Shown here: one piece after another, positions 1 through 38,027 of the stretch
How the letters are laid out: the number at the start of each line of letters is the position of its first letter
Numbering within the stretch: the stretch's first letter is position 1
NCBI GenBank assembly: GCA_047601445.1
Contig: JASGJH010000001.1
Coordinates: 7,424,001 to 7,488,000 of the forward strand
Reading direction: 5' to 3'
Source: Myxococcales bacterium
GTDB lineage: Bacteria > Myxococcota_A > Polyangia > Polyangiales > DASUME01
DNA length: 64,000 nt
The notes under the pieces: model-generated
Databases searched by the model: none
What the model saw: the letters and a program-made list of their open reading frames with translations, nothing else
Told to the model about the DNA's origin: nothing
Program-made: the position numbers and the translations under genes

Positions 1-1021
1 CCAGCAAGAGCTCGCCCTCCACGTCGTGAATGGACGCACGGATGGTCTCGGTGCGGTCGGCTACGATCTCGAGCTTGATCGCGGCGGGGAGCGCAGCCTC
101 GAGCTGCGGCAGGATCTCACGCACGCGATCGACGATGGCGATCACATTGGAGCCGGGTTGGCGCTGGACGCTGAGCAAGATGGCCGGTGTGCCGTTGGCG
201 GAGGCCGCGAGGAACGAGTCCTCGACGTCGTCACGGACCTCGGCCACGTCGGCCAGGCGGACCATGCCGTCGTCGCGCACGCTGAGCACCAGGTTGCGAT
301 ACTCCTCGGCGGTCTTGAGTTGGCCGTTGGTCTCGAGCGAGTAGGCGAGCTCCGTGCCGTCGAAGCCGCCCTTGGCTTGGTTCGAGTTGGCTGACGCGAT
401 GGCCCCGCGCACGTGCTCGAAACCAAGGCCTCGTGCCGAAAGGAGCCGTGGGTTCACGCTCACGCGCACCGCAGGACGCGCGCCGCCGCCGAGGCTCACC
501 AGGCCCACCCCCGGGATCTGCGAGATCTTCTGGACGAGCCTGGTGTCGGCCCAGTCCTGTACGACCGAGAGCGGTAGCGTCGGGGACGACACGGCCAGGG
601 TCAACACGGGTGCATCGGCCGGGTTGACCTTGCTGTAGATGGGGGGCGACGGAAGGCTCGGGGGCAAGAAACTCGACGCCGCGTCGATCGCCGCCTGCAC
701 CGTCTGTTCGGCGATGTCGAGGCTCACGTCCAGACCGAAGCGAAGATTGATCACCGAACTGCCGCTTGCGCTGGCGGACGACATTTGATCCAGTCCCGCC
801 ATGGCGCCGAACTGACGCTCCAGCGGGGCGGTGATCGTGGTCGCCACGATCTCCGGGCTGGCTCCCGGGTACGAGGTGATCACCTGGATCGTCGGATAAT
901 CCACTTCGGGCAAGGCGGACTGAGGCAAGAGTCGATAGCCGAGCACGCCCGAGAGGAAGATGGCCACCATGGTGAGGCTGGTCGCCACGGGTCGCAGAAT
1001 GAAGGGACGCGAGGGATTCAT
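1..1021 (-). CDS. mdtB: RND efflux permease, MdtB/MuxB type (N-terminal part; runs off the window)
   Basis: Manual translation from ATG 1021 gives MNPSRPFILRPVATSLTMVAIFLSG...ALPEVDYPTIQV...YSKVNPADAP, open to the window edge. ATGA overlap with the upstream MFP stop. Absent from the ORF track because it has no stop in the window. Confidence 0.92.
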   Translation of the reverse strand, partial: MNPSRPFILRPVATSLTMVAIFLSGVLGYRLLPQSALPEVDYPTIQVITSYPGASPEIVATTITAPLERQFGAMAGLDQMSSASASGSSVINLRFGLDVSLDIAEQTVQAAIDAASSFLPPSLPSPPIYSKVNPADAPVLTLAVSSPTLPLSVVQDWADTRLVQKISQIPGVGLVSLGGGARPAVRVSVNPRLLSARGLGFEHVRGAIASANSNQAKGGFDGTELAYSLETNGQLKTAEEYRNLVLSVRDDGMVRLADVAEVRDDVEDSFLAASANGTPAILLSVQRQPGSNVIAIVDRVREILPQLEAALPAAIKLEIVADRTETIRASIHDVEGELLL

Positions 1022-2232
1022 GGATGCGCTGAGGTGGGCTGCGAATGGTCGCCGCTGGCGCGCGCCGCCGTGCCCTCCGGTTGCACTGGGGCGTCCTTGG
1101 GGGGCTCTTTGAAGCTCACCTGGCTGCCCTCGCGCACGCCATCGATACCCTGCACGACCACCAGTTCACCGGCGCTCACGCCCCCACGCACCACCGCCTC
1201 GGGGCCCTCCGTCGGGCCGAGCTCGAGCTTGCGTACCGAAGCCACGTGGTCCTTCCCGACCACGTAGGCGAAGGGGCCTTCGCGCCCCCTTTGCACGGCG
1301 CCGATGGGGATGACGGTGGCGTCGCGCACGACCTGAACCACGAAGCGCACGTTCACGAACTGGTTCGGGAAGAGCGCGCCATCGTGGTTGTCGAACTCCG
1401 CCTTCAGTTTGACCGTTCCGCTGCTGGCGTCGATTTGATGGTCGATCGTCGCGAGTTTCCCGCGCGCGAGCCGGCGGTGCGAGCCCTTGTCCCAGGCTTC
1501 GACCTCGAGCGGACGCTTGGCCTGCCGGGCGCGCGCCAGCTCCTGGACCACCGCGGCCACCGTGTCCTCGGGCAGGGTGAACACGACCGTGATGGGCTCC
1601 ACCCCGTGGATGACGGCCAAAGCCGTAGTCGCGTCGACGTTGTTGCCCACATCGAGTTGACGGAATCCGATGCGGCCGCGAATCGGCGCGCTGATCCGTG
1701 TGTGACCCAACTCGAGGGCGGCGGCGTCGTGGATGCCCTGGCTGATGCGCTCGTTGGCCTGATACTGCCCCACCAGACTCTCCTGCGCGGCCACTTCCTG
1801 CTCGGAGATCAGACGATCCTTGGCGAGCACGCGGGCACGCTCGAGGTCGGCCCTGGCGTGGGCGAGCACCACGCGGTCCTTGTCGAGCTGGCCTTCGGTT
1901 TGGGTCAGGCGGGCGCGGAACTCACGCGGGTCCACTTCGGCCAGCACCTGGCCACGCTCGACCCACTCCCCTTCTCGAAAGCTCACTCGCACGAGCTGTC
2001 CTGTGACCCGGCTGCGCACGTTTACGGACTCGGACGGCACCACCGTCCCGAGACCCGACAGAACCACGGGTAGGTCGCGAACTTGGGCCTGGCTCACGCC
2101 CACCGTGACGACGCGCGGACCGGCCCGGGTGGGACTCTCCGCGGCGGCCTCGGTGGAGAGCCGTGACCATGTCAGAGCCCCTGCGAGCACGCCGCACGGC
2201 AACGCTGCCAAAAGCAGGAATTTCCTCAACAT
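1018..2232 (-). CDS. mdtA: RND periplasmic adaptor (membrane fusion protein), MdtA type
   Basis: C-terminal 404 aa of track ORF 1018..4374, starting MLRKFLLLAAL. N-terminal TM segment, LGTVVP..VNVRSRVTGQL, ISAPIRGRIG, IDHQIDASSGTVKLKAEF. Confidence 0.9.
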   Translation of the reverse strand: MLRKFLLLAALPCGVLAGALTWSRLSTEAAAESPTRAGPRVVTVGVSQAQVRDLPVVLSGLGTVVPSESVNVRSRVTGQLVRVSFREGEWVERGQVLAEVDPREFRARLTQTEGQLDKDRVVLAHARADLERARVLAKDRLISEQEVAAQESLVGQYQANERISQGIHDAAALELGHTRISAPIRGRIGFRQLDVGNNVDATTALAVIHGVEPITVVFTLPEDTVAAVVQELARARQAKRPLEVEAWDKGSHRRLARGKLATIDHQIDASSGTVKLKAEFDNHDGALFPNQFVNVRFVVQVVRDATVIPIGAVQRGREGPFAYVVGKDHVASVRKLELGPTEGPEAVVRGGVSAGELVVVQGIDGVREGSQVSFKEPPKDAPVQPEGTAARASGDHSQPTSAHP

Positions 2233-2301
2233 CGGCAGACCTCGGGGCAGCGAGGGAACCCGGAAGGGCGCCCGCCCGCCCGGTCGTCTCGACGGACAAG
2301 T

Positions 2302-2317
2302 GTCTATCTTAATGGAC
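2302..2317. promoter_or_regulatory. Putative operator box 1 (GTCTATCTTAATGGAC)
   Basis: 70 bp upstream of the mdtA ATG. Exact reverse complement of box 3 over 18 bp including the GT flank. Confidence 0.8.
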
Positions 2318-2369
2318 TGGTGTCCGCAACCCGATGCGACGACGCGTCCGGGGCCCGAAAGACGGCGCG

Positions 2370-36826: not shown

Positions 36827-36832
36827 TGCCGT

Positions 36833-36848
36833 GTCTATAAAAAGAGAC
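36833..36848. promoter_or_regulatory. Putative operator box 12 (GTCTATAAAAAGAGAC, with GT/AC flanks)
   Basis: 43 bp upstream of ATG 36891; immediately before a -35-like TTGACT at 36856-36861. Confidence 0.78.
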
Positions 36849-36890
36849 ACGCGTCTTGACTTTGCGCGGCGAGAGTGCCCTATTGGGTCC

Positions 36891-38027
36891 ATGGACAAGC
36901 AGGTGGAGCACTTCTGGAGAATCGTGGGCTCCGACGGGCGCAAGCCCGGTTTCGGAAATGGCGACCGGGGCGATGTTTCTCCCAGCGAGAAGGCCATCGC
37001 CACCGGACGAGATGGCTTCGACGCCATCGACTACGCTGCCGCGGTGGCGCGCGCAGCCGAGCTGTCGGGCTTCTACGGCGCGCTGTTGCCGACGAGCCGC
37101 CAGTCCAACGAGACCTGGTTGGTGTCGGCCGCGCTCGCGCGCGAGACCCGCAAGCTGCACTTTTTGATCGCCTTCCAGACGGGTTTCATTCAGCCCGCAT
37201 ACGCCGCCCAGATGGCCGCCACGCTCCAGCGCATCACGCACGGCCGCGTGGACTGGAACATCATCACGGGTGGGGATCTGGCGGAGCAGCGCGCGCAGGG
37301 CGACTATTTCGCCCACGACGAGCGCTACGCGCGCACCGAAGATTGGCTGGTGGCGCTACGAAAGTACTGGAGCGACGAGAATGCCCAGCACGATGGCCCC
37401 TTCTATCGGTACGAGGGCGGCGGACTGCGCGGAGCGTTGCGTAACCAGGCGCTGCCCACGATCTACTTCTCGGGTGCCTCGGACGCCGCGCTGGGCGTGG
37501 CTGCCAAGGTCGCGGACGTGCACTTGACCTGGGCAGAGCCGCCCGCGCAGCTCGAGGAGATCATCACGCGCTTGGGGGACCGCGCCGCGGCCCTCGGCCG
37601 CACGCTGCGCTTCGGAACCCGCATCGACGTGGTCGCACGCGACACGGAGGAGGAGGCGTGGGCAGACGTACGCAAGTTCGCTGCGGGCATCGCTCAGGGG
37701 CCGGGAGCGAAGCGGGTGGGCTCGGACTCCCATGGCCGCGCGCGCCAAACCGCGTTGCACCGGGGCACGTTCGACAAGGTGGAGGACCTGCTCGTGTCGC
37801 CCAATCTGTGGGCCGGCATGAACCTACTTGGGCCCGTACCGGCGCTGGTGGGGAGCTACGAGCAAGTGGCCGAGCGTCTGGAGGAGTACCAGGACATCGG
37901 GCTCACCACGTTCATCCTGGATGGCGCGCCGCACCTCGAGGAGGCCTTCCGGGTCGGCCAGGAGGTGTTGCCGCTGCTGCGAAATCGCCGTCAACAAGGC
38001 CCTCAGCCGCTCTCGGCCGCATCGTGA
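36891..38027 (+). CDS. SsuD-like alkanesulfonate monooxygenase (LLM class)
   Basis: AAELSGFYGALLPT, AAQMAATLQR..GRVDWNIITG, IYFSGAS, LTWAEPP, SPNLWAG, LVGSYEQVA, PHLEEA. Confidence 0.88.
   Translation: MDKQVEHFWRIVGSDGRKPGFGNGDRGDVSPSEKAIATGRDGFDAIDYAAAVARAAELSGFYGALLPTSRQSNETWLVSAALARETRKLHFLIAFQTGFIQPAYAAQMAATLQRITHGRVDWNIITGGDLAEQRAQGDYFAHDERYARTEDWLVALRKYWSDENAQHDGPFYRYEGGGLRGALRNQALPTIYFSGASDAALGVAAKVADVHLTWAEPPAQLEEIITRLGDRAAALGRTLRFGTRIDVVARDTEEEAWADVRKFAAGIAQGPGAKRVGSDSHGRARQTALHRGTFDKVEDLLVSPNLWAGMNLLGPVPALVGSYEQVAERLEEYQDIGLTTFILDGAPHLEEAFRVGQEVLPLLRNRRQQGPQPLSAAS

Follow-up and report, generated by a model that had tools for sequence, protein, structure and literature searches.

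A widespread gene island with DszB-like proteins, probably for sulfur-starvation scavenging, in a Myxococcales bacterium

Here we describe a gene island of a Myxococcales bacterium, located in a 64,000-nucleotide stretch of its genome (assembly GCA_047601445.1, contig JASGJH010000001.1, positions 7,424,001 to 7,488,000 of the forward strand), referred to as the window. Among transport and redox genes, the island carries several genes for proteins resembling DszB, the sulfite-releasing enzyme of the 4S desulfurization pathway. It fills positions 1–38027 of the window, extends about 17.4 kb further to the left, and thus measures about 55 kb. It is shared, with shuffled gene order, among many soil bacteria.

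A first-pass annotation of the letters alone had named genes for uptake, sulfur oxidation, DszB-like proteins and efflux in 1–38027, and Pfam and NCBIfam scans confirmed that every named gene is present. The confirmed uptake set comprises a TonB-dependent receptor (TBDR), SsuABC and YejABEF, which is better called Yej-like (YejB scores 436 vs a cut-off of 445, YejE 371 vs 439). The scans and alignment also bore out the oxidation candidates, a 3-His cupin, a glutathione S-transferase (GST), TolC and five type IV ATP-binding cassette (ABC) halves. Of the annotated MdtAB, the window holds mdtA and only the 5′ third of mdtB; the rest of mdtB and mdtC run on to the left.

The left flank additionally contains a sensor-less sigma-54 activator (SfnR-like) and two XRE regulators, of which one has a Pfam cupin hit. 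Also there are an SsuE-type flavin mononucleotide (FMN) reductase, a class II aldolase-like gene (AldII), a second NtaA-type monooxygenase, a GNAT gene and, as read by eye, a nitroreductase-like gene. The flank further holds a fifth DszB-like gene, TonB-ExbBD, mdtCB and a major facilitator superfamily (MFS) gene. The closest relatives of the island proteins are found in Polyangiales-type genomes. DszB-like genes occur in 1 of 9 same-genus genomes (72–99% complete) and in none of 31 other relatives. A phylum-wide search gave 2 weak matches in 350 genomes; it scored five candidates per genome in a sample not specific to myxobacteria, and is not used here.

The four DszB-like proteins of the window are encoded at 6233–7308 (+; protein 1, RCAG subfamily), 15443–16567 (−; protein 2), 16723–17826 (+; protein 3, of a subfamily accompanying Yej and NtaA-type luciferase-like monooxygenases, LLMs) and 30898–31962 (−; protein 4). 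The accessible part of a DszB study names C27, H60, R70 and an RXGG motif (PMC6100217), and these align in all six paralogues of the genome. In each window protein Gly73 is kept and the catalytic Cys is the sole Cys; the position of DszB S25 is Thr in three and Ser in one. The structure model of protein 4 (pLDDT 90.6) has the DszB fold, with 2de3/2de2 as the top three Foldseek matches (TM 0.74–0.78), ahead of SsuA. When this paralogue was searched, the only PDB sequence matches were DszB (E 4e-16). Unlike SsuA, none of the four has a signal peptide: the motif starts 8–16 residues from the start, and the best hydropathy window is 0.7–1.7, compared with 2.3–2.8 for SsuA, YejA and the TBDR.

Among 141 homologues, the Cys is kept in 123, the His in 136 and the Arg in 140, RxGG is kept, and exactly one Cys occurs in 116. 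More than 1,400 protein clusters are related to one paralogue, mostly labeled as transporter binding proteins. In a FastTree tree (midpoint-rooted, without DszB itself, used solely to see subfamilies), the window proteins sit in separate subfamilies, most of them spanning phyla, with at least four cross-phylum subfamilies in all. This separation suggests that the paralogues may act on different substrates. Because the mechanism proposed for DszB protonates an aromatic carbon (accessible part of PMC6100217), sp2-linked sulfinates (aryl, heteroaryl or vinyl) would be the likeliest substrate class.

The fifth DszB-like protein, on the left flank, is 59% identical to paralogue 4, with a changed RNNG motif and three Cys. 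The adjoining AldII has lost its H-x-H (L001:6238-8042), and the two together look like a diverging or decaying duplicate. The sixth gene lies 6 Mb away at an operator-marked locus (L003:6279-11588; genome 1.386–1.392 Mb), where its neighbors are AldII, two further LLMs and a hydrolase-like gene. Orthologues of this LLM pair recur paired in many loci, possibly as a heterodimer. Incidentally, of 15 Cys-less DszB-like paralogues, 7 adjoin a sensor-less sigma-54 activator, compared with 6 among the 117 others (three lineages only; L043, L044, L045, L056, L057, L061, L076). A Cys-less paralogue could possibly act as a trans-acting sensor for the activator.

The island genes are linked by a 16-bp palindrome, GTCYW-N6-WRGAC, which has 8 strict matches in the window when 0.42 ± 0.59 are expected (100 shuffles). 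With a matrix built from 10 of the window sites, 12 sites scoring at least 13 appear in 1–38027 and none in 38028–64000. They lie 70 bp upstream of mdtA (2302–2317), twice in the divergent promoter of ABC half A1 and DszB-like protein 1 (6054–6069 and 6133–6148), at the FlaR-like kinase gene (7962–7977), upstream of the NtaA/DmoA-family monooxygenase (15438–15453), in the divergent promoter of DszB-like proteins 2 and 3 (16630–16645), upstream of the TBDR (23805–23820), ssuA (30816–30831), DszB-like protein 4 (32071–32086) and the cupin (32658–32673), in the divergent promoter of GST and ABC half C (33385–33400), and upstream of the SsuD-like gene (36833–36848).

The extended island holds 16 of the 28 sites genome-wide scoring at least 16, and 15 of the 24 scoring at least 18. 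All 16 island sites are placed 16–175 bp before a start codon, and several contain a TATACT-like (−10-like) hexamer, which fits a repressor. Co-regulation of the island genes through one operator is thus supported at the level of sequence. The region had been annotated as motif-linked, which holds except for glmS, a neighboring 88-aa open reading frame (ORF) and the acyl-CoA dehydrogenase (ACAD)-fold gene, all without this motif.

Twelve sites (score at least 16) lie outside the island. Four are at the sixth DszB-like/AldII/LLM locus and one (score 30.4) is at a second ssuA paralogue, both places having been left out of matrix training. That stand-alone paralogue (L006:4102-5142) bears one of the two strongest operator sites of the genome. 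Other outside sites are at DoxX-GST, an MFS/phosphoesterase pair, a 5′-nucleotidase-like gene and unknown genes (L008:7513, 10069; L007:5816; L004:4839; L005:5218). A site at genome position 3653838 was considered as a control element of a 1-Cys peroxiredoxin and dropped, being downstream of that gene.

The promoter of the XRE-cupin regulator itself (HTH_3 plus cupin; SutR/PuuR type) has a copy of the operator. Other myxobacterial-type loci show the motif again, and in five other genomes it adjoins XRE-cupin orthologues at 7 of 10 loci. Orthologues at least 63% identical occur in 4 of 9 genus relatives, three of them near ssu-type ABC, GST, LLM or flavoprotein/ferredoxin genes, with the motif. 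In relative G042, cysK directly follows one of the XRE genes. In the same genome ribBA (L175:2772-3887) has operator sites, which fits the flavin demand of monooxygenases. We infer that the XRE-cupin protein binds the 16-bp operator, which would define a candidate sulfur-starvation regulon for myxobacteria.

Protein composition provides another line of evidence. Cys+Met was measured in the C-terminal 75% of each protein, against a background of 2.9% over about 4,200 crudely called genes. It is 0–0.4% in the four DszB-like proteins, 0% in GST, the FMN reductase and MdtA, and 0.6–0.9% in the TBDR (0.59%), SsuA, TolC and the SsuD-like enzyme. As groups, 16 core proteins (p = 1.6e-7) and 8 efflux proteins (p = 0.005) are sulfur-poor; exceptions besides the ACAD-fold protein are SsuC (4.7%) and MdtC (3.1%). 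With the operator and this sulfur sparing, the proposal of an organosulfur scavenging system with uptake, oxidation, DszB-like and efflux genes under one operator stands, and the island very probably serves scavenging in sulfur starvation.

Related loci were taken from genome contigs as the best 79 of 280 matches to one peptide pattern, with at most 10 kb on each side; kin among them do not count as independent, and the contigs are often short. They come from Myxococcota, Proteobacteria, Verrucomicrobia and Actinobacteria, and at least two DszB-like genes occur in 39 of them. Neighbors include LLM (50), SsuC-type (48), TBDR (46), AldII (38), ABC-B (27), activator (27), ExbBD (24), Yej (11), FMN reductase (10), FlaR-like kinase (6), ABC-C at 55% identity or more (5) and cupin (4). 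The first-pass annotation had offered synteny as a check on its system, and the gene set does co-occur across the four phyla. Cultured hosts include Sphingobium TomTYG65, Pseudomonas species and S. meliloti.

In S. meliloti, sma2087 and sma2093 encode proteins 41 and 48% identical to the island DszB-like proteins, the hits having been matched to these tags by coordinates in this analysis. The accessible part of an expression study annotates both as ‘Desulfurization enzyme’ and gives increases of log2 7.3 and 7.0 (about 130-fold), along with log2 3.6–3.9 for asfA in the same data (PMC5940162). By the file layout, the comparison reads as loss of pSymB. According to that part of the paper, the sma2087 operon responds specifically to deletion B180 (635,940–869,642), which in our comparison spans the pSymB sulfate ABC operon cysA2-cysP2-smb21132-smb21133 (769,048–772,920). 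Sulfate starvation would explain the induction, an interpretation that is ours and not that of the paper's authors.

One transport partner is the ABC-B pair at 10317–14022 (−; B2 10317–12209, B1 12229–14022), two paired halves of a transmembrane and a nucleotide-binding domain each that form a type IV heterodimer of TM287/288- and TmrA-like type. In a reverse test, ABC-B1 was searched in metagenome contigs, giving 78 loci, namely 68 orthologue loci (46 of them one Pseudomonas-type cluster) and 10 non-orthologous loci. A DszB-like neighbor is present in 51 of 51 orthologue loci of at least 10 kb (11 of 11 after clustering) and in 0 of the 10 non-orthologous loci, of which only 3 are long. The pair is a dedicated partner of DszB-like loci.

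The other halves are less constant: A2 (2370–4260, −) and A1 (4217–5971, −), both identified by Pfam, have no orthologues of at least 50% identity in the 79 loci, and half C (33496–35262, +; Pfam) is single. Support for the co-regulated export of the first-pass annotation is mixed, the ABC-B pair speaking for it. MdtABC, TolC and GST are local recruits, because they occur in 3, 0 and 0 of the 79 related loci.

The pair likely removes a sulfur-free carbon skeleton; the association is observed, and the outward direction would follow from the nearest bacterial structures among the matches listed, TmrA, TM287/288, Sav1866 and YheH. These are known as exporters. Desulfination could also be right and export wrong, if the heterodimer imports the substrate or secretes a sulfur-mobilizing compound, with MdtABC/TolC as locally recruited stress pumps. 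Fold does not give transport direction, and YbtPQ and IrtAB are type IV ABC heterodimers that import. The pair also travels with TBDR and TonB-ExbBD, and related loci hardly ever hold MdtABC or TolC. On the other hand, the nearest structures favor export, two canonical importers are already in the island, an operator of its own stands before mdtA, and both MdtA and TolC are poor in sulfur. Import or secretion by the pair is thus distinctly unlikely.

Three types of candidate oxygenase accompany the DszB-like genes. The window's NtaA-type LLM (14030–15377, −), a frameshifted copy, can be classed by NCBIfam only to the NtaA/DmoA family. Its intact left-flank paralogue matches CmoJ/YtnJ at E 6e-90 and DszA-type at E 3e-73, being nearer to CmoJ than to DszA/BdsA.

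The SsuD/MsuD-like LLM (36891–38027, +; 296 bits vs a cut-off of 518) keeps W195 and R225. It has no R296 RGG(A/S) sulfonate-binding loop; the sequence there is NLLGPVPA, as it is in a 75% orthologue. RGG is retained by several LLMs of related loci. In the accessible part of PMC8234197, the R296 loop is needed by MsuD, and W195 and R225 are also named. SfnG, as described in the accessible part of PMC11588060, binds a neutral sulfone in a site poor in positive charge, and by analogy a neutral substrate is plausible for the SsuD-like enzyme. No SfnG was seen among the LLMs of the genome.

The ACAD-fold flavoprotein (35717–36826, +) is by score not DszC, SfnB or MsuC; it reaches 58.6 bits vs the DszC cut-off of 850, and DszC is near the bottom of its PDB matches (E about 1e-9). 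Since its gene has no 16-bp operator and the protein is not sulfur-poor, it was once regarded as a passenger. This was revised given a sigma-54 −24/−12 promoter at 35671–35687 (+), a second palindrome, GTGTTGC-N4-GCAACAG, at 35591–35608, and the neighbors in relatives. Four of 9 relatives carry orthologues (62–65%). In two of these the gene faces an SfnR-like activator, in a third it abuts a true SfnG (631 bits), and in the last it lies at a contig end.

The palindrome matches CTGT-N10-ACAG, the presumed SfnR consensus. With up to 2 mismatches it occurs 36 times in the 79 related loci vs 1.5 in shuffles, 11 of them near a strict sigma-54 promoter. The left-flank activator, whose AAA domain starts near the N-terminus with no sensor domain before it, adjoins SsuE, an equivalog at 206 bits vs a cut-off of 164. 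SfnR-type control of the ACAD-fold gene is predicted. By eye, a short frame before this gene (35329–35600) looks like the end of a methyltransferase; the genome has no other copy of it.

Presence of all three folds with an FMN reductase, and a DszB-like gene adjoining an ACAD-fold gene in S. meliloti and Pseudomonas loci, could suggest a literal 4S pathway for (di)benzothiophenes, in which the ACAD-fold protein is DszC, the NtaA-type LLM is DszA and the DszB-like proteins are DszB. However, the ACAD-fold protein is far below the DszC cut-off, its orthologues of at least 50% identity are in 0 of the 79 loci, and the LLM is nearer to CmoJ. Moreover, the three genes are not one operon, having separate promoters and two regulatory motifs. 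A literal 4S pathway is very improbable. The first-pass idea of an expanded 4S pathway, taken literally, is likewise not supported, with no DszC or DszA orthologue and an SsuD-like enzyme lacking R296; the island appears, from its genes, to resemble the 4S pathway in the last step without being a member.

CmoJ forms a sulfenic acid, not a sulfinate (accessible part of PMC10863075). The closeness of the intact LLM to CmoJ/YtnJ speaks for another explanation, a sulfur-starvation island in which the DszB-like proteins do not desulfinate. Their Cys would serve sulfur transfer or sulfenic-acid reduction in a CmoJ-type salvage of S-conjugates, or the proteins would be cytoplasmic ligand carriers or sensors. 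The GNAT, the GST and the Yej-like importer of the island agree with this, as do the Cys-less paralogues beside activators. However, the whole DszB set (Cys, His, Arg and RXGG) is kept and not the Cys alone, and the Cmo-route partners GNAT, GST and amidohydrolase are rare or absent in the 79 loci. A non-desulfinating role is rather unlikely.

Two further metal-type proteins are less clear. The cupin (32140–32642, −; placed by alignment) conserves H-x-H and a distal third His. Against thiol dioxygenases it gives no Pfam hit and weak PDB matches (E 0.05 and 0.12); its 64% orthologue falls in Atlas clusters at 0.96–0.98, with CDO_I on 16% of one. AldII has a class II aldolase fold (model pLDDT 89, TM 0.6–0.7 to FucA/AraD). 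Across 26 rows its H-x-H is invariant and the third His is replaced (N-G-G) in most, which departs from the three-His metal site. Some decarboxylases and non-heme iron oxygenases likewise have the class II aldolase fold.

The remaining genes serve transport or appear peripheral. The Yej-like peptide ABC importer (17848–23618, +, in the order B, E, F, A; Pfam and NCBIfam) is followed by the TBDR (23887–26514, +; Pfam) and, 17 bp behind it, the TolC-family channel (26531–27916, +; NCBIfam). Then come ssuB (27977–28753), ssuC (28750–29742) and an ssuA-like lipoprotein gene (29739–30761), together 27977–30761 (−; Pfam and NCBIfam), and GST (32700–33326, −; Pfam). That the substrates are peptide- or glutathione-linked, as had been suggested, is a guess. 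At the left edge, the 5′ part of the mdtB-like resistance-nodulation-division gene (1–1021, −) continues leftward, next to the mdtA-like periplasmic adaptor (1018–2232, −; Pfam/NCBIfam, 352 bits vs the MdtA cut-off of 391). The FlaR-like P-loop kinase (7392–7977, −) was identified by NCBIfam.

A second glmS (8048–9880; NCBIfam) and the 88-aa ORF, together 8048–10179 (−), are passengers, because they have no motif site, glmS is in 0 of the 79 related loci, and the same pair is found elsewhere in relatives G003 and G006. Orthologues of the pair (about 70%) occur in three relatives, distant from sulfur genes. A sulfatase-like ORF (by eye; 45000–47111) lies 7 kb to the right of the island with no operator site. 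Elsewhere in the genome (33–42 kb, L009), a stretch that looks unlike the rest encodes a long GD-repeat protein.

Five window genes have a single-base frameshift, near 2690 (ABC half A2), 7159 (DszB-like protein 1), 14667 (NtaA-type LLM), 20040 (yejF) and 32301 (cupin), and two more are on the left flank. This is a mild excess over the background of 5 in 107 orthologues, two at one site (p = 0.019 for six). Combined with the left-flank DszB-like paralogue and AldII partner that lost conserved residues, it might point to transport and redox genes that are decaying or were assembled by chance. However, wherever homologues span a break, both halves of the gene retain normal identity and are free of internal stops. 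Three of the breaks fall within short base runs, and a relative 81–90% identical reads through the LLM break. The operators and the sulfur sparing are also intact. The frameshifts are probably assembly errors rather than decay, and a decaying or chance collection is hardly credible.

Taken together, the likeliest mechanism, to which we give slightly better than an even chance, is that the DszB-like proteins desulfinate and the ABC-B pair exports. When sulfur is scarce, the putative XRE-cupin repressor would leave the observed 16-bp operators in response to a presumed signal, which would also free the SfnR-like sigma-54 branch driving the ACAD-fold gene. TBDR/TonB-ExbBD, SsuABC and the Yej-like ABEF, as expected of their families, would import organosulfur cargo. 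FMNH2 from the SsuE-type reductase would supply the CmoJ/DszA-like, SsuD-like and ACAD-fold oxygenases, whose families suggest that these FMNH2-dependent monooxygenases turn imported sulfides, sulfoxides and sulfones into organic sulfinates. By analogy with the DszB mechanism, each DszB-like subfamily would then protonate the carbon bearing SO2− and release sulfite. The sulfite would pass to the host sulfite reductase and CysK, whose genes are present, and the ABC-B heterodimer, found in association, would expel the sulfur-free skeleton.

Several points weigh against this mechanism. By NCBIfam and PDB scores, no island gene is a DszC or DszA orthologue. DszB-like protein 4 is only 25% identical to DszB, and of the 132 homologues scored, 15 have no such Cys, so the DszB mechanism cannot apply to every member of the family. 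Proteins of the periplasmic binding protein fold also catalyze other reactions, DnpB and THI5 being named in the accessible part of 10.1101/749879. About 6 of the 12 high-scoring outside operator sites precede genes without an obvious sulfur role, and there is no operator site at cysK, the 3′-phosphoadenosine-5′-phosphosulfate-reductase-family gene or sulfite reductase, all present in the genome. The ACAD-fold protein is at the 64th percentile (Cys+Met 3.2%), and the ABC-B halves are not clearly sulfur-poor (2.0–2.1%, 26th–29th percentile). The scarcity of MdtABC, TolC and GST elsewhere counts in the same direction. In S. meliloti, deletion B180 covers 234 kb, and the accessible part of the authors' text makes no mention of sulfur (PMC5940162).

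To our knowledge, DszB is known only from oil desulfurization. We conceived, tentatively and at somewhat below an even chance, that its natural home is an undescribed cross-phylum sulfinate route: several specialized DszB paralogues, a metal-remodeled aldolase-fold enzyme and non-sulfonate LLMs would desulfurize plant- or microbe-made aryl and heteroaryl compounds, the ABC heterodimer would export the skeleton, and Cys-less paralogues would be the missing sensor of SfnR. If DszB-like clusters are desulfinases, soil bacteria have a second general organic-sulfur route beside SsuD/TauD, and biodesulfurization gains a new enzyme pool. Bacteria that are in culture and tractable also carry the system (Pseudomonas putida group, S. 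meliloti and Sphingobium).

In the literature covered, with subscription journals mostly outside, no study of the natural role of the DszB-like family or of the myxobacterial island was found, nor any paper on an ergothioneine-sulfinate desulfinase. The accessible part of PMC13352529, on the A. baylyi dimethyl sulfide pathway, has no mention of DszB or a desulfinase, and those of PMC11022551, PMC10256816 and PMC7962211 added nothing on DszB-like proteins. The first-pass statement that no such system is described in myxobacteria agrees with this. The S. meliloti version already carries the annotation ‘Desulfurization enzyme’. We regard the island as a widespread, uncharacterized variant of sulfur-starvation scavenging.

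Among known systems, the Pseudomonas ssu/msu/sfn set (SsuABCDE, MsuCDE, SfnG, SfnR) shares with the island SsuABC, the SsuE equivalog, an SsuD-like LLM, sulfur-poor proteins and a sensor-less sigma-54 activator beside the reductase. In the msu route, MsuC oxidizes sulfinate to sulfonate and MsuD then cleaves it, whereas the island has an SsuD-like enzyme without R296, no SfnG seen among the LLMs of its genome, and DszB-like proteins as the hub. The S-alkylcysteine salvage of B. subtilis (CmoO/CmoJ; YxeK) has in common a CmoJ-like NtaA-type LLM, a GNAT nearby, and importer and flavin-supply genes. It differs in that no DszB-like protein is named and cysteine, not sulfite, is recovered (accessible part of PMC10863075).

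The S. meliloti pSymA locus (sma2087-sma2101 / sma2085-2077), strongly inducible and with no biochemical study found, shares two DszB-like genes, an ACAD-fold gene, an NtaA-type LLM and a peptide-type ABC importer, and differs in having no AldII, ABC-B pair, TBDR or activator match in a 41-kb stretch. The Sphingobium sp. TomTYG65 plasmid AP027331 and loci of the Pseudomonas putida/protegens/chlororaphis group have automatic annotation only, and a scan of proteobacterial loci did not find the myxobacterial operator. They share with the island three DszB-like genes, AldII, LLMs, the ABC-B pair and TBDRs; the Sphingobium locus also has the activator and a neighboring arylsulfatase.

The 4S pathway (Rhodococcus/Bacillus DszABCD, TdsABC, BdsABC; PDB 2DE2/2DE3) shares the DszB fold with C27/H60/R70/G73, the LLM, ACAD-fold and FMN-reductase partners, and the logic of oxidizing and then desulfinating. 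The island differs from it in its low identity to DszB, its 5–6 DszB paralogues and its oxygenases, which are not DszC or DszA orthologues, and it adds a TBDR, two importers, AldII-like proteins, a dedicated type IV ABC pair and two regulators.

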